Part shown: positions 9,349 through 41,781 of the stretch, in pieces
Layout of the letters: every line of letters begins with the position of its first letter
Numbering within the stretch: position 1 is the first letter of the stretch
Assembly: GCA_023229865.1 (NCBI GenBank)
Contig: JALNYL010000001.1
Location: 23,008-87,007 of the forward strand
DNA from: Minisyncoccota bacterium
Lineage (GTDB): Bacteria > Patescibacteriota > Minisyncoccia > Phycocordibacterales > UBA1550
Direction: 5' to 3'
Length of the DNA stretch: 64,000 bases
Position numbers and translations under genes: made by a program
Notes under the pieces: model-generated
Databases searched by the model: none
What the model was told of the DNA's origin: nothing
What the model saw: only the letters and a program-made list of their open reading frames with translations

Positions 9349-9386
9349 ACTCCCCTCACCGACTCGGTGCGGGGAGTTTTATTTTG
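9349..9386 (+). terminator. Rho-independent terminator
   Basis: actcccc tcaccga c tcggtg c ggggagt tttatttt. Confidence 0.6.
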
Positions 9387-9479: not shown

Positions 9480-9722
9480 ATGACAACAATGACAACATTT
9501 TTAGGGTTCGGACTCGTATGGTGGACGGGGATCATTGGAGGATTTATTTTCCTCCTTCTCGTCGGCACTGCGTGGATCAAACAATACAACTACAATCTTT
9601 TTATGAAGTTCCAGGTCCCTTTCACCCCATTCCACCACTGGTTTGGTTGGCTCGCATTTGGAATGCTTCTTGTTCATTTTATCCTCGCGCTCTTCAGCTC
9701 TGTCTTTTATGTCTATTTCTAA
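9480..9722 (+). CDS. Two-TM membrane protein with conserved His in helices (possible heme/ferric-reductase-like stub)
   Basis: Two hydrophobic helices. FTPFHHWFGWLAFGMLLVHF. Its 3' end overlaps the open frame of the downstream FNR-like gene. Confidence 0.45.
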   Translation: MTTMTTFLGFGLVWWTGIIGGFIFLLLVGTAWIKQYNYNLFMKFQVPFTPFHHWFGWLAFGMLLVHFILALFSSVFYVYF

Positions 9723-10431
9723 AACAATAAAACACTGGTTCGCAGAAGCGCCACATTTCGAAGGGACGATTGTTGATACTGAGCGTATTGGGTCTCGTAT
9801 TCAAAAAGTAACCATCGCACTCCCTGAGCCAGTCGAAACACCATTCCCTATTGGAAGCTACGTTCAACCGATGACATGGGGGTGTGTACCGCGCGCATAC
9901 TCAGTAGCGCTCGCCGATAAACAATCTTTCACCCTCCTCGTGAGCTTTTCGGGTGGCGGCTGTGGCTCACGTTTTTTCCGTGATGCACAAGATGGCGACA
10001 AGGTGGTTTGCTATGGACCTTATGATGACTTCCCTTATCGTTACCGCACAGGCCGTTCAAAAGTATTTTTTGCAACATCGACAGGAGTCGCGCCCTTTCG
10101 CCGCATGATAGATGAGGCAATAGGAGAAGGTGTCGACGTGGCGCTCTATCTCGGCTCACCAAAGGAGGGGGACGTCGCTTTTAAGGCAGAGCTTGAGGAG
10201 CTTTCGCGCAATAATCCTTCATTCACCTTTTGCCCAACACTTTCAAATCCCGACCCTGACTGGAAGGGCGCGCACGGGTACGTGACCGACCACATCACGC
10301 AAAACCCCGACCTTATGCGTAAGAGCGATGTTTACATTTGCGGGATCCCCCCGATGACCATGGGGGTACTCGCCGCCCTTGAGAAAGTCGGTGTCCCTGA
10401 AAAGCAGATCTTTGTGCAAAAGTTTGGATAA
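9709..10431 (+). CDS. FNR-family FAD/NAD(P)-binding oxidoreductase
   Basis: RAYSVA (RxYS FAD motif), GTGVAPF (NAD(P) motif), C-terminal ICGIPPM. Frame is open upstream to at least 9643. Confidence 0.75.
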   Translation: MSISKTIKHWFAEAPHFEGTIVDTERIGSRIQKVTIALPEPVETPFPIGSYVQPMTWGCVPRAYSVALADKQSFTLLVSFSGGGCGSRFFRDAQDGDKVVCYGPYDDFPYRYRTGRSKVFFATSTGVAPFRRMIDEAIGEGVDVALYLGSPKEGDVAFKAELEELSRNNPSFTFCPTLSNPDPDWKGAHGYVTDHITQNPDLMRKSDVYICGIPPMTMGVLAALEKVGVPEKQIFVQKFG

Positions 10432-10469
10432 ACGTTATAATTTATAAATATCAATTAATACATACTATT

Positions 10470-10940
10470 ATGGGAACACAAGAAGAAGTAATAAACAGAG
10501 GATTGGGAGAAGTACGAAGATATGGAGTCGTAGTGCTTCTTGCACTTCTTCTCTTGAATGGTGTCGTCTTGTGGGCACTCCACTGGGTAGAGAGCAATGA
10601 CCTTCGCACCGAACTCAGCAATTACGCTGCGACGCTCCCCGTCCCTGACATTACCAAGCCAGAACAAACTATAAATCTCCCCGAAGATATCATCGCGCTC
10701 CGAACACAGGGAGAAACTCGTGTTGGTTTTTACGAAACATCTATTGGTGACCAAGATTTTCTTGTTTACTCTGATCCCAACAAGCACTACGTTCTCATGA
10801 AGTCAGAATCAGGGATTCAGCGCGAGACGCGAAGTTTTGCATTTGCTCTCGCAGGGCTCTACCTTGGTGAACTCGTTTTCCTCCTGGGTTGGTGGTTCTT
10901 TATCCGCACAAAAGTTCGCGAAATGTTTGAAGCAATATAA
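10470..10940 (+). CDS. Membrane protein, N- and C-terminal TM helices (hypothetical)
   Basis: ORF with TM at 18-40 and C-terminal LAGLYLGELVFLLGWWFFI. Confidence 0.5.
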   Translation: MGTQEEVINRGLGEVRRYGVVVLLALLLLNGVVLWALHWVESNDLRTELSNYAATLPVPDITKPEQTINLPEDIIALRTQGETRVGFYETSIGDQDFLVYSDPNKHYVLMKSESGIQRETRSFAFALAGLYLGELVFLLGWWFFIRTKVREMFEAI

Positions 10941-10942
10941 TC

Positions 10943-11482
10943 ATGATTTCCTTTCTTTCAAAAAATATTCAGAAATTTCTCGTATTCTTTTTTACGGCTA
11001 TTTCGCTTATTTTGGTTGTGATGGGCGTCTCTCGCATCAAGAAGCCAGTAGTGACCGCTGAGGTGCCACAGCCTGCACCGCAGGCCCCCGTAGACACTCA
11101 GGGAGCGACCACAATCGCAGGAGATAACTACCAAACTCCATGGGGTAGCGCACTTGCTTCGGTGACCGTAAAAGACGGAAAAGTGATCGCCGTTAAAATG
11201 CCTTCTATCCCACCCTCTCCTCCTTCTGTGTACGCAGAGCCATTCCTTGTAGACCAAGCTCTCAAGGCGGGCGGTGCCAATATCCAGGGTGTTTCAGGGG
11301 CGACCTACACAAGCCTCGCTTTCAAATCGTCTCTTGAAAGTGCTATCGCAAAAGCAGCAGCCCAGGGGCAAACCATCACCCCCAATACAACTACTAGTGC
11401 CCAAACAGCAGGAGCAGTAAAACCTTCTGTTCCCCGCCAATACCGTGATGATGACGAAGGAGAGAATGAGTGGGATGATTAA
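10943..11482 (+). CDS. Membrane-anchored FMN-binding-domain protein (RnfG/NqrC-type FMN_bind), acidic C-tail
   Basis: N-terminal TM. FMN_bind signature ANIQGVSGATYTSLAFKSSLESAI (flavinylation site S-G-A-T). C-terminal RQYRDDDEGENEWDD. Confidence 0.75.
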   Translation: MISFLSKNIQKFLVFFFTAISLILVVMGVSRIKKPVVTAEVPQPAPQAPVDTQGATTIAGDNYQTPWGSALASVTVKDGKVIAVKMPSIPPSPPSVYAEPFLVDQALKAGGANIQGVSGATYTSLAFKSSLESAIAKAAAQGQTITPNTTTSAQTAGAVKPSVPRQYRDDDEGENEWDD

Positions 11483-11559
11483 TGGTGTGAAAGATTTTAG
11501 GACTTCTGCCGTCTTCAATATGGTAAGCCTTTAAAATCTTAATTAATTCAAATTTAACA

Positions 11560-12573
11560 ATGGCATCTTTCCAAAAAAACTTACAGAAATTCTTCGTATA
11601 TTTTTTCACGGGTATTTCTGTGATTATTGTAGTGCTCGGTATTCAGCGTGTTAAACATAGCGACACGCTCGGCACAACCGCGGCTCCTGACGAAGGAGAG
11701 ACTGGGAAGATAGCAAATGGAACAACTCCTTCAAAAACAAGAGTCGCTGGCGCACAAGAGACAATAAGCGCAAACGGCAAAACATTTCAAACCCCTTGGG
11801 GCAATCTCTCGACGCTCATTAAGGTACAAAATGGCAAAATTGTTTCAGTGGAGATCCCTCAGCTCCCCGACTCTCCTCCTTCTCTCGAAGCAAAGAATTA
11901 TCTCATCGATCAGGTTTTGCGTAGTGGAGATGCAAACATTCAGGGTGTTTCAGGAGCGACGATTACAAGCCGCGCATTTAAAGCATCTCTCGAAAGTGCT
12001 TTGGCTCTCGCTGCAACTCAAGGAGGAACAACGACGACAAACACTGCAGCCGCAACTACCGCCACTACCGCAACAAACACAGGAGCTTCAACTCCTGCAC
12101 CAGCTGCAGCAACAACAGTAGCGCAAACAACCACTAACACTACGGGAGTATCAGGTACCTTCACCGGTAACGCATACCAGACTCCGTGGGGCAACGCTGT
12201 CGCGTCGGTGACCTTCACAAATGGCAAGATTACTGCCGTCACAATGCCACAGGTTCCAAACTCACCTCCTTCTGTTCAGGCGAAACAATATCTTATTGAC
12301 CAAGCTCTCGCCGCAGGAAGTGCCAACATCCAGGGGGTATCAGGAGCGACCTACGCAAGTATCGCCTTCAAGTCATCTCTCGAAAGTGCTATCTCGAAGG
12401 CAAGCGCTCAGGGAACCGTATCCGCACCAACACCAAGCGCAGTAGGGACAGCTACACAGCAACCCGCAAAGCCATCAATCTCTCGCACATACCGTGACGA
12501 TGACGAGTACGAAGACGAGGGTCACGACGATGAGCGCGATGAATGGGATGACGATGATGAGTGGGACGACTAA
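11560..12573 (+). CDS. Membrane-anchored protein with two tandem FMN-binding domains (PplA-like), acidic C-tail
   Basis: Two copies of QTPWGN...ANIQGVSGAT(I/Y)(T/A)S...KSSLESA separated by T/A-rich linker. C-terminal RTYRDDDEYEDEGHDDERDEWDDDDEWDD. Confidence 0.75.
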   Translation: MASFQKNLQKFFVYFFTGISVIIVVLGIQRVKHSDTLGTTAAPDEGETGKIANGTTPSKTRVAGAQETISANGKTFQTPWGNLSTLIKVQNGKIVSVEIPQLPDSPPSLEAKNYLIDQVLRSGDANIQGVSGATITSRAFKASLESALALAATQGGTTTTNTAAATTATTATNTGASTPAPAAATTVAQTTTNTTGVSGTFTGNAYQTPWGNAVASVTFTNGKITAVTMPQVPNSPPSVQAKQYLIDQALAAGSANIQGVSGATYASIAFKSSLESAISKASAQGTVSAPTPSAVGTATQQPAKPSISRTYRDDDEYEDEGHDDERDEWDDDDEWDD

Positions 12574-12579
12574 TTACGT

Positions 12580-13503
12580 ATGACAGAACATCGCGTGTTT
12601 CATTCAATGGGGATTCCCGTCCATATCACTATGGTCGGGTTTTCCGCTCAAGACGCCAACCAAGCAACACAAAAAGCGGAAACAATATTTAAAGAATATG
12701 ACTTGCGCTTCAGTCGCTTCAAACCAGAGAGCGAACTCATGGGACTCAATACTAGTAATGGCGCATGGCACAAGGTTTCTGTTGACCTCTTTCGTGTGAT
12801 CAAACGTTGCGTAGCGCTCGCTGCGGAGACTGACGGAGCATTTGACCCATCAGTGGGCGGTGTCCTTGCCTCTTATGGCTACGGACTTCCTGAGCACTTC
12901 GTCCTTCGTGAGCCGATCGCCACATATCGCGACCTTGCGTTTAATGATCGCGAACTCCTCATCCGCCTCGAGCCAGGACAGATCCTTGAGCCTGCTTGCG
13001 TAGTAAAAGGTATGGCGATCGATGTCGCAGGAAAAGCTGTTTTGGAAATGACCGATATCAAGAAGCAGGGGTTTATGATAAATGCAGGGGGAGATATTTT
13101 TACCGCAGGAATTTTTGAAAACAACACTCCCTGGAACATCGCCGTACAGTCACCAGAAAATCCAAACGCGATTGTCGCTGCGGTCGCTCTCCAAAATAGA
13201 GGTATGGCGACATCAGGGACATATCAGACCGGCGGAGAGCACAAAGGGAAGAAGTGGCAACACCTCGTAAATATGAAGTCCCCAGAGAGTGCCCCAGAAA
13301 TCACGAGTGCAACGGTCGTTGCAACGACTTGCGAACAAGCCGATACTGAAGCATCCCTTGCGATACTTTTGTCAAAGACTGATGCTATTGCTCGTCTTGA
13401 ACGTAGTGGACTTCCCTACTTTCTCATCGACAACAAAGGGATGGTACACAAAAATGCAGCGTTTGCAGCGCTCGAAGTTCCTATCGAAAGTGTGATGGAG
13501 TAA
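12580..13503 (+). CDS. apbE: FAD:protein FMN transferase (ApbE family)
   Basis: ApbE family fold motifs (DLRFSRFKPESEL, GAFDPSVGG, INAGGDIF, ATSGTYQ). Confidence 0.85.
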   Translation: MTEHRVFHSMGIPVHITMVGFSAQDANQATQKAETIFKEYDLRFSRFKPESELMGLNTSNGAWHKVSVDLFRVIKRCVALAAETDGAFDPSVGGVLASYGYGLPEHFVLREPIATYRDLAFNDRELLIRLEPGQILEPACVVKGMAIDVAGKAVLEMTDIKKQGFMINAGGDIFTAGIFENNTPWNIAVQSPENPNAIVAAVALQNRGMATSGTYQTGGEHKGKKWQHLVNMKSPESAPEITSATVVATTCEQADTEASLAILLSKTDAIARLERSGLPYFLIDNKGMVHKNAAFAALEVPIESVME

Positions 13504-13505
13504 AA

Positions 13506-13537
13506 AGAAAAAACCGCTCGATGTCGAGCGGTTTTTA
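13506..13537. terminator. Bidirectional terminator
   Basis: aaaaaaccgctcgatgtcgagcggttttt. Confidence 0.65.
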
Positions 13538-13842: not shown

Positions 13843-14103
13843 CTACTTCTTTTCAGGGGCGCGAACGATGTACATCGTTACCACAACCACAATCGCAGTC
13901 AAAATCGTCGCGTATAAAAACTTTGCGAAAATACCGTTTGCGCTCGTAAGCGGGTAGAAATAATCAATGAGTGCTTTGATGGCTTCGTTCCACGCGAGAC
14001 CGACGACGATACCGAGGCCACCCGCGATGTAGGTCATCGAGCGTTCGCGGACTTCGTGCGTTATCTTCTCCCCTTCGGTTTTAAGTTCATTAAGTGGGTC
14101 CAT
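13843..14103 (-). CDS. Small membrane protein (hypothetical)
   Basis: ORF with two TM helices. ATGA overlap with upstream HAD gene stop region. Confidence 0.5.
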   Translation of the reverse strand: MDPLNELKTEGEKITHEVRERSMTYIAGGLGIVVGLAWNEAIKALIDYFYPLTSANGIFAKFLYATILTAIVVVVTMYIVRAPEKK

Positions 14104-14107
14104 AATT

Positions 14108-14830
14108 TTAATTTGTTTCTTTTGTGTTAAGTTTATGAATTACGTCTTTGCGCTCTATGACTGCTTCCCATCCTTCCTTCATTGCATGGTCATAAAGTTT
14201 TTTATTAGGATTGAAACAAATCGGCCGCTCAACGATTTCAAGCATCGAAATATCTCCTTCTGTATCACCAACACCCACTGAGCCTTCGAGTGTGAGACCT
14301 TCTTTCTCACACGCACGACGAACGATATTTGCCTTGAGTGCAATGACTGGCTCGTCGACAATATTTCCCGTGAGAAGACCTTGCTCGTCAGTCTCGTAAA
14401 TCCTCCCGTACGTCTTATCAAAACCAACATCATTACAGAAAAAATCGAGCGTTGTCTTTGGCGACTGCGAGATAGCGAGGAGAAAGTAGCCATCTTTCTT
14501 GAGCTCCTTGATGAGCTCCTCGGTGTATTTGTATGTGCGGTGGCGATATCGAGCCACCACGAGCTCAGAGGCACGCTGGAGCTCTGTGTAGGGCATACCT
14601 TTGATGTTTTGCACAAACACCTTCACGACAGCCATAATATACGACTCATAATCCCCTTTGCGCTCAAGCCACTCAACCTTCTCGTCTTCATAATCCTGGC
14701 GTACCGACAAAGGGAAAAGTCCGAGCTCGATAAGCATTTCTACCAGCTCAATAAGGAGCGACGAGCGGAAAATAGTGCCGTCGATGTCGAAAATAGCGAC
14801 CTTGCGAAGTGTTTTTGTGGATTCAGTCAT
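14108..14830 (-). CDS. HAD-superfamily hydrolase (HAD-IB / phosphoserine-phosphatase-like)
   Basis: Motif I FDIDGT, C-terminal GDTEGD motif. Confidence 0.75.
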   Translation of the reverse strand: MTESTKTLRKVAIFDIDGTIFRSSLLIELVEMLIELGLFPLSVRQDYEDEKVEWLERKGDYESYIMAVVKVFVQNIKGMPYTELQRASELVVARYRHRTYKYTEELIKELKKDGYFLLAISQSPKTTLDFFCNDVGFDKTYGRIYETDEQGLLTGNIVDEPVIALKANIVRRACEKEGLTLEGSVGVGDTEGDISMLEIVERPICFNPNKKLYDHAMKEGWEAVIERKDVIHKLNTKETN

Positions 14831-18156: not shown

Positions 18157-18726
18157 CTAAAACACTCTACCGCTTTTCTTGAGCTCTTTGCGGAGTGAGA
18201 GGTAGTTAGGAATTGCTTGTGCAACAAGGTTCCAGAACTTATGTGAATGGTTGAACTCCTTGAGATGGCAGAGCTCGTGCACGATGATGTAATCAGCGAG
18301 CTCGGGGGGCAGGAGGGCTATCCTGTAGTTGAAATTAAGATTGCCTTTGCGTGAGCAGCTTCCCCACCGTGTCTTCTGATTTTTGATATTTATCTTGTTG
18401 TAGCTGAAGTTGTAAAACGTATTGAAATACTCCAAGCGCGCTCGTGCTTGCACGAGCGCGCGCTCCTTGTACTCTGCGTATTCCTTCGAGCTCCCCTTCT
18501 TCACAAATACTGCACCTGAAAAACTTTTGAAGTGCTCGAGCTTCTCAATGATCCACTGCGATTTCTGGAGGATATATTTCTCAATCATTCCCTCCCCGAT
18601 CCCACGTGGCGCCGTCACCACAAAAGCCCCATCGCAATATATTGCGAGTCGTAACCTCTTCGCCCGCGCACGCACCTTGAGCGTATAAGGGACTTTCTGC
18701 TTTTGAAGTTCAATGTGCTTTAGCAC
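18157..18726 (-). CDS. YgjP/DUF45-like M48-type metal-dependent hydrolase
   Basis: Zinc motif HELCHL near C-terminus. N-terminal region typical of DUF45. Confidence 0.7.
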   Translation of the reverse strand: MLKHIELQKQKVPYTLKVRARAKRLRLAIYCDGAFVVTAPRGIGEGMIEKYILQKSQWIIEKLEHFKSFSGAVFVKKGSSKEYAEYKERALVQARARLEYFNTFYNFSYNKINIKNQKTRWGSCSRKGNLNFNYRIALLPPELADYIIVHELCHLKEFNHSHKFWNLVAQAIPNYLSLRKELKKSGRVF

Positions 18727-18973: not shown

Positions 18974-19741
18974 CTACACAAGGCGGTACTTTCCTGCATC
19001 AATAAATTCAAGATAGTTCTTGTCTCTCAAAAACTGTAATTGCTGTCTAATTTTTGGCTTAATGTTTTTATTTTCAGGATGAATGACAGATAAATTTTTT
19101 TCAAAATTATACACGTCTTGCAATGTGAACTCCTTCTTATTCAATGAATCAATACAATTCATTATGTCCAAAATCCATCCTTTTGCATCGCTCTTTTTAA
19201 TCTGTTTCAAAAAGACAGTCTTTTGCCATTTTTCTAGTACTTCTTTCTTGCTAAGTTCTTTTCCGTTTTCAATATAAAAAATCTGCCCTGCTTTTGGTAT
19301 TTTTGAAAACAAAATATTTGAACCAACCCAGCCAGCTCGTCTTGCACTTTCTGCTAGTGGTTTTCTTTCTTCAATAATTTCTGATACAAAAAAGTGTTTT
19401 GGAACAACGAAAAAATCATTTACTTTCCAGTCTTCAACCAAATAGCCCATAAAAAAGAAATTTGGTTTTTGCGGTGAATTAATTCTCTTCACCATTTGAG
19501 AATATGCACCAGCAGAAACTTTGTTTCCCATTTTTCCCTTTTTAGATTTTAACTCAAAATCTTCTGCACATTTTTTACAATAAAAATCAGCAACAGGCTT
19601 ATTGTTTTCGTAGTCAGAAACACCATAGCCACAACTCGGGCAATATATTTCATTAAGCACCCATTTTTCAGTCAGAACTCGAGCCTTTTGCGAGTTGCTT
19701 ACGTAAGCATCAGCTATCTTTGTAACAAAATTTAAGTTCAT
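18974..19741 (-). CDS. DpnI-family methylation-dependent type IIM restriction endonuclease (cleaves Gm6ATC in characterised members)
   Basis: Strong recalled similarity to S. pneumoniae DpnI over full length (SNSQKARVLTE, YCPSCG, NKPVADFYCKKCAEDFELKSKKG, PNFFF, RRAGWVGSNI, C-terminal winged helix IRQQLQFLRDK). Start refined to ATG 19741 (255 aa). Low GC. Confidence 0.8.
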   Translation of the reverse strand: MNLNFVTKIADAYVSNSQKARVLTEKWVLNEIYCPSCGYGVSDYENNKPVADFYCKKCAEDFELKSKKGKMGNKVSAGAYSQMVKRINSPQKPNFFFMGYLVEDWKVNDFFVVPKHFFVSEIIEERKPLAESARRAGWVGSNILFSKIPKAGQIFYIENGKELSKKEVLEKWQKTVFLKQIKKSDAKGWILDIMNCIDSLNKKEFTLQDVYNFEKNLSVIHPENKNIKPKIRQQLQFLRDKNYLEFIDAGKYRLV

Positions 19742-19982
19742 AAATATCAGAAAGTATACCACGCACAGAAGATTTTGAACTACACCCAAGGCAGAAAATC
19801 CCACCTTAGAATGGGGTTTTCTAAAGTTGTGAGCCTAATCGAGATGCGACCCAAGGATACATTACCCTGTAAGGCTTATTTTAGCTCTTTCTGTCCCGTT
19901 AATCGACCCTTCTCGAGAGTTTGTAACAGTTAGCCAAACATGAATTCCGAGCTATGAAAGACATTTAAATAATGAAGATCTT

Positions 19983-21476
19983 CTATCTCTTTTGGAGTGG
20001 ATTTAATATCTCTATGCATCTTTCTAAAATTTCAGGATTATTCACTATAATTATCTTAAGTTCTTTTCGCACTCTTGTTATAGCTTGAAAAAGCATTTTA
20101 TGCGGCAAATAAGGACCATTTGTAGTGTGAGTTAGTTCACCTGTTTCTTTATATACAAATTTTTCTCCCACAATTACTACAACTTTATCAAATTCTTGTC
20201 CTATAACACCATGTGCATTCGCTGAAGAGTTAGTGTGTATATTGTATGTTTCATATATTGAGCTTCCATGCAACTGTTCTGTGTAATTTATATATACCCA
20301 CCGTTCATCTTCAAGATTCTTTACATAACCACCAACGCAATTCATATTTTCAAAATACTGTATCGTGACATTTTTATATGCCCTTTGAGATTTGTTTTCT
20401 TTTTTATTAACAAATCTTTTTATAAAAGAAGAAATTTCTTTATTCGTTCTTATATTTTCAGATAGCTCGAAATGATTTTTTATCCCCTCAAATAATTCTG
20501 CGGCAGATCTGTTACCATGCTTACCATCTATAAGACTTAGCGTTTGGGTTTTGTCGTAACTAAATAAGTAATTGAATTTTTCTTTATTATTTATAATTAC
20601 AGTCAATTGTATTGAACGAATTCTTTGGGCTTCATCAAATATTATTAAACTGTAGCTGTCTTTAACCCTTTGTTCTGTAAATTCGCTTATCGAAATTAAA
20701 TCAAAATTATGCACATCCCTTAACTTTACTTGTCCTAGATTTAATTTTCCGCAATGAACAATCAGTACTTTATTGTGATTAGATATTATTTCCTTTGCTA
20801 TATCATACACAAGTAATGTTTTTCCTGTTCCTGCTTTTCCAGAGATAGCACAAGGGCCAAATTCATTTTTCGCCATTATCTCCAGTATAGATTTCTTAAT
20901 CTTTACTTGATGATCGGTCAAAAAATATTCACCTTTTATAAACTTATCAGTACTATTGAAAGGCGACACAAGAAATTCAGATGGATCAAATAGTGAATCC
21001 AAATTCTCTTTTGTAGGGGAATCCGTCAACAAAACTTCTAGTAAGTCTTTTACTTCTAACTCACTTAGCTCTTTCTTTTCATTAAGAATATATAGTTTAT
21101 CTTCGTTTGATTGATAAGTGATGTTATAAATTTTATCTTTTCCAAGAGAATCAAGATAGTATTTATTTTGTGTTAACTGTTTCTTTATATTTTCTTCACT
21201 TGCGCCAGATTTTAATTCAATATTAATAACCGAATTTTTTGTGATTCTCAGTAAATCAAACTCTTTGGATATCTGCGGTATTTTATATCCAATATAATAC
21301 CCATCAAAGATATTTGGACTTTGATATTCTCCAAACAACTTTTCTATGAATTTCGATAGATCTTCTATTTCATTATCTTCAAGATTTACGTTTAGGTATT
21401 CTAAATACTTCTTAAATAATTCATCAGATAGATTATTTTTCGATTCTAATATTGATAATAAGTTTGTAAAGTTCAT
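19983..21476 (-). CDS. NERD / PD-(D/E)xK nuclease domain fused to P-loop ATPase (DUF2075/Schlafen-like helicase-type)
   Basis: N-terminal EFDLLRITKNSVINIELKSG (NERD-like D...E-x-K). Walker A SGKAGTGKT, Walker B LIIFDEAQR. Very AT-rich. Confidence 0.7.
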   Translation of the reverse strand: MNFTNLLSILESKNNLSDELFKKYLEYLNVNLEDNEIEDLSKFIEKLFGEYQSPNIFDGYYIGYKIPQISKEFDLLRITKNSVINIELKSGASEENIKKQLTQNKYYLDSLGKDKIYNITYQSNEDKLYILNEKKELSELEVKDLLEVLLTDSPTKENLDSLFDPSEFLVSPFNSTDKFIKGEYFLTDHQVKIKKSILEIMAKNEFGPCAISGKAGTGKTLLVYDIAKEIISNHNKVLIVHCGKLNLGQVKLRDVHNFDLISISEFTEQRVKDSYSLIIFDEAQRIRSIQLTVIINNKEKFNYLFSYDKTQTLSLIDGKHGNRSAAELFEGIKNHFELSENIRTNKEISSFIKRFVNKKENKSQRAYKNVTIQYFENMNCVGGYVKNLEDERWVYINYTEQLHGSSIYETYNIHTNSSANAHGVIGQEFDKVVVIVGEKFVYKETGELTHTTNGPYLPHKMLFQAITRVRKELKIIIVNNPEILERCIEILNPLQKR

Positions 21477-21720: not shown

Positions 21721-22125
21721 CTACTCAGCCTTAATTTGGAAATTGTACATCCCCATTGAGCAGACTCCTTGAATCTTTTCGCCGGGTTTTGGTGTCCCCA
21801 AATCAATAATCTCTTCCTGTGTTGGCGCAAGGACCTTCTGAAAGCCGATAGAGCGCACCACAAGAGATGCTGAGCAGTCATAGGTGCCACTCGTCTTCAC
21901 GATGAGCTTGGTCGGGATATCAGGCTTTATAGAAGATAGTTTTGGGAAGTACCCGCCCTTTGCCGCGAGCGTCACATATTGCACACCGTCTCTCATTTCC
22001 GTGTTTTGCGTTTGGGCGACCTCCGTATTCCCCAGCGAAGCCTCGGGAGTTTTTGTCACAAAATATAATGCTCCGCCGACAATCGCGATACTGAGCACCA
22101 CTGATATGAAAGTATTCTTTTGCAT
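21721..22125 (-). CDS. Secreted cupredoxin-like (Cupredoxin_1-type) metal-binding domain protein
   Basis: Signal/TM MQKNTFISVVLSIAIVGGALYF. C-terminal ...GVCSMGMYNFQIKAE and YDCSAS. Start refined to ATG 22125. Confidence 0.4.
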   Translation of the reverse strand: MQKNTFISVVLSIAIVGGALYFVTKTPEASLGNTEVAQTQNTEMRDGVQYVTLAAKGGYFPKLSSIKPDIPTKLIVKTSGTYDCSASLVVRSIGFQKVLAPTQEEIIDLGTPKPGEKIQGVCSMGMYNFQIKAE

Positions 22126-22127
22126 AT

Positions 22128-22934
22128 TTATATATTGAAAAGTGGATCGATGAGACCTAGGCCCACAAGCCCTGCAAGGAGCGCAAATGAACCGAGCCCA
22201 ATCACGACCACGCCGACCGACTTGAAGAAGAGTGGCGCATGCTTCGACTGTGCGAATGTAACCGAGCCAAACGACAATACGAGAAGCACAGGGAGAGTCC
22301 CGAGAGCAAACGAAAGCATAATGAGGAATCCTGACACAAACGAACCACTCGAGAGCGCAGCAACTTGCATCGATTGCGTAAATCCACACGGAAGGAAGAA
22401 TGTCCCCACACCGATAATGAGTGGCGCAAATACTTGATGCTCAACTTTTTTGAAATAATCAAATATTCCTGCAGGAAGTTTGACCGCACGCTTGTTGAGT
22501 ACGCCGACAAGATTGAGCCCGAGGATAATCATCACGAGTGAGGCGACAATCCCGAGCACTGCACCAAGGGTGAAGCTCACACCAATAGCCCCACCGAGCG
22601 CACCGAGTAGCCCTCCAAGGAACGCGAAGCCGCCAAGGCGCCCCATATGAAAAAGATAAAATGGCTTCCTGTTGTCCTTGTCATCCTCAGCAACCTGAGC
22701 AGAAAGCGAGAGGACAAGCCCGCCCACTACCGCGAGACAGCTCGAGACCGAGGCCACGAGGCCTACGATGAAGCTGGTTGCGGGTGTCGCAGGGCCACCA
22801 AGTCCGAGATTCAATATGCCCGACTTTTGCACAATGAAAAATAGTGCGAGAAACGCAAGACCAATAGGGATAGCCTGCCAGATGACATCACTACTCGACT
22901 TTTCATTCTCTCCCTGAAGTTTTGTATTTTTCAT
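22128..22934 (-). CDS. Polytopic membrane protein, DsbD_2/CcdA-like (putative thiol-disulfide or metal transport partner)
   Basis: About 7 TM helices, Gly-rich. Membrane-embedded Cys in SSCLAVVGG and FFLPCGF. Confidence 0.4.
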   Translation of the reverse strand: MKNTKLQGENEKSSSDVIWQAIPIGLAFLALFFIVQKSGILNLGLGGPATPATSFIVGLVASVSSCLAVVGGLVLSLSAQVAEDDKDNRKPFYLFHMGRLGGFAFLGGLLGALGGAIGVSFTLGAVLGIVASLVMIILGLNLVGVLNKRAVKLPAGIFDYFKKVEHQVFAPLIIGVGTFFLPCGFTQSMQVAALSSGSFVSGFLIMLSFALGTLPVLLVLSFGSVTFAQSKHAPLFFKSVGVVVIGLGSFALLAGLVGLGLIDPLFNI

Positions 22935-33951: not shown

Positions 33952-34735
33952 TAATCTCTACAGAATGAATCTCTGTGATATTGAATGGGACGCGGAAAAA
34001 TATACGCTTAAAAGGTTCTGCTGGCTTTTCCTCGACGACTGAAATCGTCCCTAAAATAAGATTTCCTTTTGTAGAAACAATAGTGTCCCCGATGGCGACA
34101 AGACTATCCTGAGGAACCTTTGCTTCAAAATTGCCCATACCGCGACCGAGCGCGTTTGCAGGAACATAGTGTGGACCAACAAGAACAGCGCGTTCACTTC
34201 CTGGAGAAGAAAAGAGTTTGATTTTTGAAGAGTTTGAAGATACTTCAATAATCTCACCAATGACTCCCGAGCCTGCATATACCACAACATTACCAAGAAT
34301 GATTCCTTCTTCTGCTCCTGCATCCACCACAACCGTATCGTAGGGAGACTGACCATGATCAACAACCACTTCAGCAACAACACGATCATCGCCTCGCACG
34401 CGACCAAGTGATTCTTCGAGCTTGGTAACTTTTTCTGCAAGGAGATTTCTGTCGAGCACCTGTGCCTCTACGCGCGCGAGCTCAGCAGAAAGCATCGCAT
34501 TCTCGCGAATAAGACGTTCCTTGTCACGAAAATTTGTCGCGAAAGAATTCCACGCATTTGTAGTCGCGCCGCCAAAACCCCAAACGCCCGTGGCGACCAT
34601 GTACACACCTTCGGTGACGGTGCTTCTCGCAGGGGTGTATAAAAGCGCAAAAGCGCTAGCGCCAATAAGGACCGCGAGCGCAATGTTTTTTCGATTTAAA
34701 AAACCGTCGCGAGAATTATTTTGGTGGTATAACAT
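33932..34735 (-). CDS. mreC: Rod shape-determining protein MreC
   Basis: TM, coiled coil (LSAELARVEAQVLDRNLLAEKV), two beta-barrel-like domains. Start chosen at ATG 34735 (overlaps mreB stop by 20 nt); alternative starts possible. Confidence 0.7.
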   Translation of the reverse strand: MLYHQNNSRDGFLNRKNIALAVLIGASAFALLYTPARSTVTEGVYMVATGVWGFGGATTNAWNSFATNFRDKERLIRENAMLSAELARVEAQVLDRNLLAEKVTKLEESLGRVRGDDRVVAEVVVDHGQSPYDTVVVDAGAEEGIILGNVVVYAGSGVIGEIIEVSSNSSKIKLFSSPGSERAVLVGPHYVPANALGRGMGNFEAKVPQDSLVAIGDTIVSTKGNLILGTISVVEEKPAEPFKRIFFRVPFNITEIHSVEIIVDKRS

Positions 34736-35765
34736 TTTCGTGTTCAATAAGAACCTCCTTGAATCCTTCCATATCTTCGAGAATAGCTCCTGCTCCACGC
34801 GCCACCGCAGTGAGTGGGTCGTTTGAAATATAAACGGGAACATGAAGCGTCTGCGAGAGAAGATCATCGAGACCACGAATGAGAGCACCACCACCCACAA
34901 GGATGATACCGCGGCTCATCACATCAGAGAGAACTTCTGGCGGTGTCGTCTCAATAACTTCTTTCACAGCATCAACAAGACCGACAATCGAACCACTCAT
35001 CGCTTCACGAATATCTGTGTCCGTGACCACCACCTCACGAGGAAGTCCCGTAACCAAATCGCGCCCGCGAATCACTGCTTCCATAGGACTTGCGCCTTTC
35101 TTTGCTGAACCGATAGCGATCTTCACACTCTCCGCGGTGCGCTCCCCCACGAGCACACGAAACTCATCGCGGATGTAGGTGATGATGTCGTTATTGAGAC
35201 GATCTCCCGCAATGTGAAGATTTCTTGAACGGACAATGCCACCAAGGGAAATCACCGCGATGTCAGTTGTTCCACCCCCGATGTCGATAATCATATTGCC
35301 TACAGGGTCCTTTACAGGAAGCTTGATACCGATAGCCGCTGCCATTGGCTCTTCGACAATGTGCACCTCGCGCGCGCCAGCGTTTTTTGCAGCGTCGTAT
35401 ACCGCACGTACTTCTACGTTGGTGATACCAGAAGGAACACCAATGACCACACGTGGACGTACGGTCTTCTTACTGACCTTGTTTGCCTTACTGATGAGGT
35501 ACGAAAGCATTTCTTCGGTCACTTCAAAGTTTGAAATAACACCATCGACGAGCGGGCGGATAGCCACCACGTGCCCTGGAGTACGGCCAAGCATTTGTTT
35601 TGCTTGCGTGCCGAGTGCGACGACTTGCCCTGTCTTTTGGTTTACCGCAACAACAGAAGGCTCGTTGATCACGATGCCGTGATCGCGCAAGTAAACAAGC
35701 GTGTTCGCAGTACCGAGGTCGATACCGATGTCATTAGAAAAAAGTTGGTAGAATTTATCAAACAT
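34716..35765 (-). CDS. mreB: Rod shape-determining protein MreB (actin homolog)
   Basis: DLGTANT, VVIGVP, DIGGGTTD actin-fold motifs. Confidence 0.9.
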   Translation of the reverse strand: MFDKFYQLFSNDIGIDLGTANTLVYLRDHGIVINEPSVVAVNQKTGQVVALGTQAKQMLGRTPGHVVAIRPLVDGVISNFEVTEEMLSYLISKANKVSKKTVRPRVVIGVPSGITNVEVRAVYDAAKNAGAREVHIVEEPMAAAIGIKLPVKDPVGNMIIDIGGGTTDIAVISLGGIVRSRNLHIAGDRLNNDIITYIRDEFRVLVGERTAESVKIAIGSAKKGASPMEAVIRGRDLVTGLPREVVVTDTDIREAMSGSIVGLVDAVKEVIETTPPEVLSDVMSRGIILVGGGALIRGLDDLLSQTLHVPVYISNDPLTAVARGAGAILEDMEGFKEVLIEHENVIPPK

Positions 35766-40767: not shown

Positions 40768-41781
40768 TTATTTTTTGGCGAGGATACTTTTCTTATACGT
40801 ATCCAAGTGATCAAGTGCGATACCTGTCCCCTTCACCACACAGTAAAGCGCCTCCTCTGCGAGGACTGCTTTCACGCCCGTTTTCCTCTCCACGAGCTCA
40901 GGGAAATTGCGGAGCTGTGATGAGCCTCCGGTCATGATGATCCCCTGGTCAATAATATCCGCTGCGAGCTCTGGTGGAGTCTCTTGCAAAACATCCTTGA
41001 TAGCGCGCACCACTTCTTTGAGTTCGCGGTCGATAGCCTTCACGATTTCATTGGTCGTCACCTGAGCAGTACGAGGAAGCCCTGTCACATAGTCACGGCC
41101 CTTAATCGTAAGGAGGAGCTCATCATCAATAGGCACCGCTGAGCCGATGCGTACCTTAATTTCTTCTGCAGTGCGGTCACCAATAGCGAGATTGAAAGTC
41201 TTCTTGATGTGGTCCGCGATTGCGTGATCGATCTTGTTCCCTGCGCACTTTACTGAAGTCGAAGCAACAATACCTCCAAGAGAAATCACTGCGACGTCGG
41301 TCGTACCACCACCGATGTCCACCACCATGTGTCCGCGCGCTTCATAAATAGGAATACCCGCACCGATAGCCGCGAGAATAGGCTCCTTCACAACGTACAC
41401 GTTTTTTGCGCCTGCCTTAATCGTCGCTTCAATAACAGCACGACGTTCTGTCGAAGACACTCCTGCAGGCACCGAGACCATCACATCTGGTTTCAAAATA
41501 TTCCACTTACCAAGTGCCTTACCAATGTAGTAGCGAATCATCGCCTCTGTCACGCGATAGTCTGCGATCACCCCATCCTTCATCGGACGAAATGCCACAA
41601 TGTTGTCAGGTGTACGGCCAATCATTTGCTTTGCTTCGATTCCCACTGCAACGATGCGATTAGTCTGCTGATCCACGGCAACCACCGAAGGCTCATTGAG
41701 CACAATCCCTTCACCAGGAATATACACAAGCGTGTTTGCTGTGCCGAGGTCGATACCGATTTTTGTTACAAAAAATGACAT
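40768..41781 (-). CDS. Second MreB-family actin homolog (Mbl/MreBH-like paralog)
   Basis: DLGTANT, DIGGGTTD. About 45-50% identical by eye to mreB at 34716. Confidence 0.8.
   Translation of the reverse strand: MSFFVTKIGIDLGTANTLVYIPGEGIVLNEPSVVAVDQQTNRIVAVGIEAKQMIGRTPDNIVAFRPMKDGVIADYRVTEAMIRYYIGKALGKWNILKPDVMVSVPAGVSSTERRAVIEATIKAGAKNVYVVKEPILAAIGAGIPIYEARGHMVVDIGGGTTDVAVISLGGIVASTSVKCAGNKIDHAIADHIKKTFNLAIGDRTAEEIKVRIGSAVPIDDELLLTIKGRDYVTGLPRTAQVTTNEIVKAIDRELKEVVRAIKDVLQETPPELAADIIDQGIIMTGGSSQLRNFPELVERKTGVKAVLAEEALYCVVKGTGIALDHLDTYKKSILAKK

Follow-up and report, generated by a model that had tools for sequence, protein, structure and literature searches.

How might a bacterium that is thought to live by fermentation make use of flavins attached covalently to membrane-tethered proteins? 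Bacteria of the Candidate Phyla Radiation (CPR, or Patescibacteria) are regarded as fermenters that ancestrally lacked electron-transport chains (PMC7507113), and in a survey of flavinylation that used signal peptides as a filter they were strikingly under-represented for extracytosolic flavinylation (PMC8238504). We analyzed a 64,000-nucleotide stretch of DNA (the window) from a Minisyncoccota bacterium (assembly GCA_023229865.1, contig JALNYL010000001.1, positions 23,008 to 87,007). In it, six co-directional open reading frames (ORFs) of the plus strand, named A to F here, encode a small membrane protein with conserved His residues, an FNR-family reductase, an accessory membrane protein, two proteins with domains for covalent flavin mononucleotide (FMN) and an ApbE-type transferase. 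An original prediction, made from the letters of the DNA, had described this run of six ORFs, and each of them was recovered. The six-gene feature is real and strongly conserved. We propose, at what we judge to be an even chance, that the operon is a self-contained, quinone-independent transmembrane (TM) electron chain leading from NAD(P)H to covalent FMN via a dimer of A. The signal-peptide filter of the flavinylation survey may be the reason why the module had been missed.

At the cytoplasmic end of the module, B matched the Pfam families NAD_binding_1 (PF00175; E-value 8e-18) and FAD_binding_6 (4.7e-4), and it carries the motifs RAYS (9892-9903), STGVAPF (10078-10098) and CGIPPM (10339-10356) together with a C-terminal QKFG. 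The earlier FNR-family call was upheld by the domains and by RAYS and CGIPPM, with the amendment that the nucleotide-binding motif reads STGVAPF and not GTGxAPF. The best relatives of B in the PDB were the FAD/NADH domains of NqrF and of BenC, i.e., benzoate dioxygenase reductase. All NCBIfam equivalog models fell far under their cut-offs on B, which is a generic FNR-fold reductase; its identification as a siderophore-interacting protein was rejected, with FAD_binding_9 reaching merely an E-value of 0.03. Homologues of B formed 108 clusters, and those with a named source all came from Parcubacteria-type CPR bacteria, e.g., Yonathbacteria, Paceibacterota and Minisyncoccia.

At the other end, F was confirmed as ApbE both by Pfam (PF02424; 6e-45, 154 bits) and by ApbE structures in the PDB (1e-21, alignment from query residue 9). 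D, for which one TM segment was predicted, matched FMN_bind once (5e-5; 24.3 bits, over the 22-bit cut-off), and E matched it above cut-off over two stretches (2.7e-14), in agreement with the domain counts given earlier. The predicted FMN sites are Thr121 in D (codon 11303-11305, motif GVSGATYTS) and Thr134 and Thr264 in E (codons 11959-11961 and 12349-12351; motifs GVSGATITS and GVSGATYAS), and the pattern GVSGAT(Y/I)(T/A)S that had been ascribed to all three domains can be read in both proteins. Across 11 of 13 D orthologues, ANIQGVSGATYTS was invariant. The second domain of E is 61% identical to D, and its best PDB match was 8P2A, SaFMN3-D2 (1.6e-10). An ApbE-family transferase, as in an ApbE-dependent flavinylation system, and candidate FMN_bind substrates with three S-G-A-T sites are encoded in one cluster. 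Both D and E end in acidic, Trp-containing tails (11440-11482, ...YRDDDEGENEWDD; 12490-12573, ...DEWDDDDEWDD), which are kept in the Yonath/Paceibacteria clade (L003, L005, L006, L097-L124), while distant D/E orthologues have no acidic tail and end directly after the FMN_bind domain. Cation binding and docking are possibilities for these tails.

This gene content recurs in related genomes. Through B we found 12 loci (the window, L001, L003, L005, L006, L085-L088 and L094-L096; B identity down to 45%), all of which contained an FMN_bind protein and ApbE, with an A gene of 77-82 aa directly 5' of B; C was found in nine of the 12, and in L001 the order was permuted to C-D-F-A-B. Metagenome contigs, scanned at the DNA level with the two most conserved peptide motifs of A, yielded 29 loci. 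B adjoined A in all 27 that had DNA downstream of A, and the 14 long loci all had the order A-B-C-D(n)-F. The number of FMN_bind domains per module ranged from one to five, with D present alone or alongside an E-type protein of two, three or four domains; the sister genome L097, for example, encodes a 576-aa E with four. This comparison of synteny showed A and B to be inseparable in about 40 loci, and it supports the earlier view that electrons enter through the FNR-like protein and the His-bearing membrane stub. A further scan of genome contigs, based on the FNR alignment, relied on patterns too generic for specific detection: 78 of its 80 loci were discarded as unrelated FNRs of Acidobacteriota and other groups, and the CPR loci L034, L067 and L074 showed different contexts, such as Trx/TrxB.

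A was also found in reduced settings. In P0174 (151 aa), the A unit occurs twice, head to tail, which gives a natural protein of four TM helices; the next gene overlaps it by 8 nt and encodes an FNR of 228 aa, 28% identical to B (2e-25; L089/L090), and no FMN_bind or ApbE gene lies near this pair. P0175 (85 aa; L091/L092) stands in the order two-component system, FMN_bind, ApbE, A, and has no adjoining FNR. Since A accompanies the reductase in some loci, the flavinylation pair in others and both in the full module, it is the hub of the module, and its company is what one expects of a membrane link between the two.

What kind of protein is A? Against Pfam it gave a weak match to Ferric_reduct (E-value 0.0016; 19 bits, cut-off 28 bits). 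When 15 members of the A family were each scanned, all 15 matched Ferric_reduct weakly (best 3e-4), and further weak matches were obtained to Ni_hydr_CYTB (eight members), DUF4405 (PF14358; five members, best 6e-4), Cytochrom_B561 (three) and PepSY_TM (one); five unrelated families were also listed, each in one to three members. Ferric_reduct and the four families named with it are all bis-His haem-b membrane families, and they probably form part of one Pfam clan of two-haem cytochromes. The original prediction had named ferric reductases with regard to a would-be fusion of A and B, and a resemblance of A to the haem-binding helices of ferric-reductase-type domains is supported by these weak matches.

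The invariant columns of the A family are W15, G17, G21, K34, Q35, N37, H52, H53, G56, W57 and H66, and a small residue stands at i+4 after each of His52 and His66 (G56 and A70). His52 and His66 lie 14 residues apart and hence on one helix face, with a spacing of about 21 Å along the helix. The only charges of A are Lys/Arg residues of the inter-helix loop (KQYNxxxFMKxQ), and the predicted topology accordingly has this basic loop inside and both termini outside, in agreement with the short acidic linker between the two repeats of P0174. Both repeats carry H-x3-(G/A)...H-x3-(G/A), i.e., H48/G52 with H62/A66 and H115/G119 with H129/G133, and the match of P0174 to Ferric_reduct spans profile positions 1-107 of 121. 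From these patterns and the weak profile matches, A is predicted to bind haem b by bis-His ligation. They further suggest that A is a half-size member of the two-haem ferric-reductase-type superfamily, in which an inner and an outer haem b would be held by the four helices and four His that two copies of A, or the tandem form, bring together.

The A family is CPR-restricted and tiny: a word-indexed search gave 17 clusters, and HMMER, run exhaustively over 1.84 billion cluster representatives, found five. Gene callers at times miss A or put it in the wrong frame, and given such misses its true size may be somewhat larger than counted. In L003/L004 (6723-6995), the public call of A is in the wrong frame, and the true 80-aa gene was seen only by a six-frame search with a profile hidden Markov model (HMM). 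Small hub genes such as A are probably under-counted in protein databases.

The junction of A and B had raised a separate question, as the original prediction had the two overlapping by about 80 nt in different frames and considered a split gene or a sequencing frameshift. An overlap of that size holds for the longest open frame of B, which begins at TTG 9643, about 66 nt 5' of ATG 9709; from the conserved start, i.e., from ATG 9709 to the TAA of A at 9720-9722, it is 14 nt. The run of the open frame into A would suit a NOX/ferric-reductase-like fusion gene of which A and B are the halves, separated by a frameshift through sequencing error or as a pseudogene, and we find this explanation barely credible. 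The B homologues begin at the Met equivalent to ATG 9709 and all but a few are full-length (233-243 aa), and no fused A-B homologue was present among the 108 B matches. In about 40 related loci A and B were separate genes, with an overlap of 11-14 nt or a gap of 6-30 nt and no fusion. Longer database entries such as P0055 proved to be merely wrong-frame read-through upstream of B, an independent assembly (L093) was identical to the window across the junction, and A has two TM helices rather than six. On these comparative data we take the split-gene and sequencing-error readings to be refuted; translational coupling of A and B is a simple explanation of the overlap.

From the gene content, domains, motifs and conserved linkage, and from the sequence features of A, we infer haem binding, dimerization, a direction of electron flow, outward-facing FMN domains and a physiological acceptor, and we propose the following route. 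Cytoplasmic B, a soluble FNR-type flavoenzyme, would oxidize NAD(P)H and dock on the basic loop of A. Two A hairpins would pair into a four-helix bundle in which His52/His52' hold the inner haem b and His66/His66' the outer one, giving a half-size, homodimeric version of a ferric-reductase/MsrQ/DUF4405-type cytochrome. The outer haem would then reduce covalent FMN on the SGAT Thr residues, one on D and two on E, to which F would attach it, and D and E, held by their N-terminal helix and a flexible linker, may relay electrons away from the membrane. Candidate final acceptors are O2, Fe(III) and other oxidants, organic ones included. For a fermenting CPR cell without a respiratory chain, the likely benefit would be regeneration of NAD(P)+ and/or reductive acquisition of metal (iron), a physiological role that is conjectural. 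The coordinates of the features are given in Table 1.

Table 1. Genes and other features of the A-F module, in positions of the window.
Feature	Position	Strand	Description
Upstream terminator-like hairpin and U-run	9349..9386	+	Ends the preceding unit and sets the 5' boundary of the module
Gene A	9480..9722	+	80 aa, two TM segments; proposed half-size bis-His haem b cytochrome, homodimer
TM2 His codons of A	His52/His53 9633-9638; His66 9675-9677	+	Proposed axial ligands of the inner and outer haem
Gene B	9709..10431	+	240-aa cytoplasmic FNR-family NAD(P)H oxidoreductase
Gene C	10470..10940	+	156-aa accessory membrane protein; no Pfam family
Gene D	10943..11482	+	179 aa; N-terminal TM anchor, P/Q/T-rich linker, one FMN_bind domain, acidic ...EWDD tail
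Gene E	11560..12573	+	337-aa paralogue of D; TM anchor, two FMN_bind domains with a Thr/Ala-rich linker between them, acidic tail
Gene F	12580..13503	+	307-aa ApbE-type FAD:protein FMN transferase
Bidirectional terminator-like hairpin	13509..13536	.	Separates the ApbE gene from the DUF5654 gene convergent to it; closes the module at its 3' side

Several observations weigh against this route, and a first group of them concerns A and its haem. Every haem-family HMM match of A lies below its curated cut-off; a sequence search of the PDB found no relative of A, and the PDB matches to the A profile were rejected as ion channels hit by chance only; and the AlphaFold2 model of the tandem form had a low pLDDT of 63. 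As electron-transport chains are generally absent from CPR bacteria (PMC7507113), the supply of haem is uncertain. No haem, flavin-transport or acceptor genes were found in the 64-kb window. The sub-threshold matches, the lack of a solved relative and the doubtful haem supply would all suit an A that is no cytochrome and acts for the FNR only as a small anchor or adaptor in the membrane, its His residues binding, e.g., metal, and no electrons passing through it. We consider such a role unlikely, given that the i,i+14 His pair with its small residues at i+4 is kept family-wide and in both tandem halves, that in every one of the 15 members nearly all the weak matches are to families of bis-His haem-b proteins, and that FezC provides a precedent (PMC10979944).

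A second group concerns the side of the membrane that the flavins face. In all 13 orthologues, F has no signal peptide, lipobox, TM helix or any other hydrophobic segment, and its location is therefore predicted to be cytoplasmic. Characterized extracytosolic systems have an exported, usually lipidated ApbE, and cytosolic ApbEs also exist (PMC12052999). Where a signal peptide or lipidation site on the ApbE or FMN_bind protein would mark an extracytosolic system, D and E carry a TM helix at the N-terminus that is not cleaved; their anchors have two to three positive charges on each flank, so that the positive-inside rule leaves the topology uncalled, with the exception of the D orthologue in L092, whose anchor is clearly N-in. 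Export of already folded flavoproteins by Tat was rejected, as the N-termini (e.g., MISFLSKNIQKF and MRWKKYLQN) have no twin-arginine motif. The motif of the putative substrates differs as well: the canonical ApbE motif in FMN_bind domains is D-x-x-[S/T]-G-A-[S/T] (PMC12052999), and D and E have Q-x-x-S-G-A-T (Q-G-V-S-G-A-T), with Gln for the canonical Asp. Changing this Asp to Ala has been reported to have only minor effects (PMC12052999).

The same parts could work with the FMN domains of D and E in the cytoplasm, as membrane-tethered swinging arms flavinylated by a cytoplasmic ApbE. Fre-like B would then reduce the tethered FMN, the FMN would reduce the inner haem, and A alone would cross the membrane. 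We regard this as possible, if on the improbable side. It accommodates an ApbE that in 13 of 13 orthologues has no export signal, there being known cytosolic ApbEs (PMC12052999), and a basic R-(I/V/Y)-(K/R)-(K/R/T) is conserved right after the anchor helix of D and E; in E. coli, moreover, FMN acts as a shuttle from Fre to MsrQ (PMC12525009). In the tandem-A/FNR pair, however, which has neither an FMN protein nor ApbE, the FNR presumably reduces A directly, and the FMN carriers would therefore sit downstream of A. Outward flavins are also favored by the one to five FMN domains on Thr/Pro-rich linkers, for proteins with up to four such domains and acidic tails resemble envelope-spanning relays, by a nearest solved relative that is a domain of an extracellular multi-FMN protein (PMC10339131), by the N-in anchor of the L092 orthologue and by the conserved ectodomain of C. 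The characterized TM-anchored FMN_bind proteins, i.e., NqrC, RnfG, PceC and NosR, hold their domain outside (PMC8238504, PMC5928378).

The outward orientation suggested in the original prediction has the L092 anchor on its side, and the signal-less ApbE and the ambiguous D/E anchors against it. Its cytoplasm-to-surface conduit is supported as a flavinylation-linked electron-transfer module, and only tentatively as an extracytosolic one. In the outward and the swinging-arm models alike, A and B would constitute a split, minimal NOX/FRE-like transmembrane reductase. A bolder version, which we hold to be rather doubtful, is that A is a 'half' ferric-reductase-domain cytochrome and forms with the FNR the smallest known transmembrane NAD(P)H oxidoreductase, the relays receiving their FMN from a cytoplasmic ApbE ahead of export or in the course of it. 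If this were true, a half-cytochrome and an FNR would give CPR bacteria an extracellular electron sink, and flavinylation by such an ApbE would be a form of biogenesis with no described example among extracytosolic flavoproteins.

Among known systems, the module comes closest to the MsrQ-like flavinylation clusters, to E. coli Fre-MsrQ and to the homodimeric cytochrome FezC. MsrQ-like clusters combine PF01794, PF00175, apbE and FMN_bind (Meheust et al., 2021, PMC8238504; Huang et al., 2024, PMC10979944). They share with the module a ferric-reductase-type haem membrane protein (by weak match in the case of A), a cytosolic PF00175 entry, the presence of FMN_bind and apbE in the cluster, and the proposed flow from NAD(P)H via haems to covalent FMN. 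Whereas their PF01794 protein has six TM helices and is usually fused to an NAD-binding domain, mostly in Actinobacteria, the module has a separate FNR gene, the extra protein C, an ApbE with no export signal and a CPR host. In place of six helices and two haem sites on one polypeptide, A offers two TM segments and a pair of conserved His positions, so that a dimer or the tandem form is needed for four helices and four His. The donor is of the MsrQ-like kind, with PF00175 (8e-18) on a separate protein that is encoded next to A in conserved linkage. As the 80-aa A falls below the PF01794 cut-off and has two TM helices instead of six, the module does not formally belong to the MsrQ-like class.

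In E. coli, cytosolic Fre reduces MsrQ (PMC12525009), and the module resembles this pair in that a soluble reductase of the FNR family and an FRD-type membrane protein encoded apart from it would carry NAD(P)H electrons across the membrane. The genes fre and msrQ are unlinked, whereas A and B are translationally coupled neighbors. MsrQ, a protein of six TM helices that binds one haem and, non-covalently, one FMN, feeds the molybdoenzyme MsrP; MsrP is absent here, and the proposed acceptors are covalently flavinylated proteins. In FezC, DUF4405-like haem sites were modeled by homodimerization, and the protein was shown to be a cytochrome (PMC10979944). Small membrane proteins of the bis-His haem-b type, putatively so in the case of A, are tied to apbE in both systems, with five of 15 A members matching PF14358 weakly, but A lies below the DUF4405 cut-off, is coupled to an FNR and belongs to a tiny CPR-restricted family.

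Proteins of the NOX/FRE/STEAP type likewise have two His at i,i+13/14 in a TM helix, a basic cytoplasmic loop before that helix and an FNR-fold donor. They are single polypeptides with six TM helices and FAD_binding_8/NAD_binding_6 domains, in contrast to the separate FAD_binding_6/NAD_binding_1 protein and two-TM A found here. As for the relays, multi-flavinylated proteins such as Streptomyces azureus SaFMN3 (8P2A; PMC10339131, PMC8238504) share with D and E an N-terminal anchor, tandem FMN_bind domains, (S/T)GAT sites and a variable copy number; Gln for the motif Asp, the acidic Trp-containing tails and the A/B pair as partner are different here.

The original prediction had drawn a parallel with Listeria PplA, that is, with flavin-based extracellular electron transfer (FLEET), in which electrons pass in a quinone-dependent way from Ndh2 to demethylmenaquinone and through EetA/B to PplA, with FmnB as the flavin transferase. 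The two systems have ApbE/FmnB-type flavinylation and a two-FMN_bind protein in common, and the parallel is generic only. The PplA model (NF041941) gave 13.6 bits on D, against a cut-off of 325, and none on E; E has a TM anchor and no lipobox Cys; and entry here is by an FNR and a small cytochrome-like protein. By Pfam and NCBIfam, neither the 64-kb window nor any orthologous locus contained genes resembling Ndh2, DmkA/DmkB, EetA/EetB or FmnA, which agrees with the earlier remark that no quinone-linked partners are visible nearby. With neither a quinone branch nor Eet proteins at this locus, a Listeria-type FLEET is very improbable for it, and we regard it as essentially refuted.

Closer to B and D is the Na+-NQR complex: the best solved relatives of B are NqrF domains, D has a TM anchor and FMN_bind domain of the NqrC/RnfG type, and ApbE serves in maturation. 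The module has no NqrA, NqrB, NqrD or NqrE, however, and B has no 2Fe-2S domain; the nqrF model TIGR01941 gave 67 bits on B against a cut-off of 295, and the RnfG models gave E-values above 0.01. The module is neither NQR nor RNF.

No account of this CPR module turned up in our literature searches. Its building blocks and logic are already published; new here are the half-size, cytochrome-like A, the ApbE with no export signal, and the occurrence in bacteria lacking electron-transport chains. A conserved operon of four to six genes joining NAD(P)H, a cytochrome-like membrane protein and tethered flavins would change the current picture of the CPR. If the proposed chain operates, it would allow quinone-free disposal of reducing equivalents, or the reduction of extracellular iron, oxygen or compounds on the host surface. 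The 80-aa A would serve as a minimal, easily expressed model of two-haem transmembrane electron transfer, and it is a plausible evolutionary building block of the six-TM ferric-reductase domain. The ApbE also raises the question of where and when membrane-tethered flavoproteins are flavinylated.

C, the remaining protein of the module, is 100% identical to MCK9344532.1, and the window belongs to a metagenome-assembled genome of Candidatus Pacebacteria/Paceibacterota. It is predicted to have an N-in terminus, a TM helix, an acidic ectodomain of about 80 aa (beta-rich, with a four-strand sheet), a second TM helix and a C-in terminus. Searches detected no relatives beyond the orthologues of the module, and C has no conserved His, its TM helices included. 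A role as haem ligand partner of A was rejected on this account and also as C is missing from some modules, and we treat C as a dispensable accessory in some of them. In three distant C orthologues (L085:6726-7214, L086:6729-7217 and L095:5722-6243) the cytoplasmic N-termini are His-rich, e.g., HKVLHHHHRHVLKHG, which hints at metal binding.

The six genes lie between two terminator-like hairpins and therefore look like one transcription unit. The upstream hairpin (9349-9377) has a predicted RNA folding energy of -22.2 kcal/mol (z -3.3) and is followed by the U-run UUUUAUUUU; the downstream one folds with -19.8 kcal/mol (z -5.9). The end at 13537 given in the original prediction takes in this second hairpin, the ApbE gene itself stopping at 13503. 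A riboswitch or other RNA element in the leader was rejected, as an Rfam search gave no match there. Genes E and F lie in one frame at 12571-12582, with TAA plus two codons between them, and the same holds in L006. Stop-codon read-through joining E to ApbE was rejected, since the frame relation is not kept in L001, L003, L086-L088, L095 and L096, and the frame match is probably a coincidence.

The neighbors of the module vary among genomes, and none of the genes linked to it codes for an acceptor or a transporter. Two-component system genes (response regulator, HisKA kinase) stand just 5' of it in L085, L086 and L091/L092. Redox-repair genes were seen in L085/L086 (MsrA) and in L001 (MsrB, DsbD and thioredoxin), and in L088 a TrxB-like gene lies directly 5' of A. 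In the window, the genes of a HAD-IB hydrolase and a small DUF5654 membrane protein run convergently to the module (13843-14830, minus strand); the same pair also follows the module in Yonathbacteria contigs L003/L004, an arrangement that suggests conservation of local gene order without an obvious link in function.

The remainder of the window consists of ordinary CPR housekeeping genes. A stretch that is probably a defence island gained by horizontal transfer lies between 18100 and 21500, where GC content falls to 0.33-0.39 from about 0.47 elsewhere. Three genes of the minus strand in this island encode a YgjP-like metallopeptidase (18157-18726), a methyl-directed restriction endonuclease resembling DpnI (18974-19804) and a helicase of SF1/Schlafen-like type (19983-21476). 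Overlapping ORFs at 21721-22934 (minus strand) encode a weak cupredoxin-like domain (21721-22389) and a DsbD_2 thiol-disulfide transporter domain (22128-22934), and may be one gene or a DsbD-cupredoxin fusion, to be compared with a 335-aa protein in L034. Two full-length MreB paralogues (34716-35765 and 40768-41781, both minus strand) occur together with an MreC gene in a cell-wall/division neighborhood.

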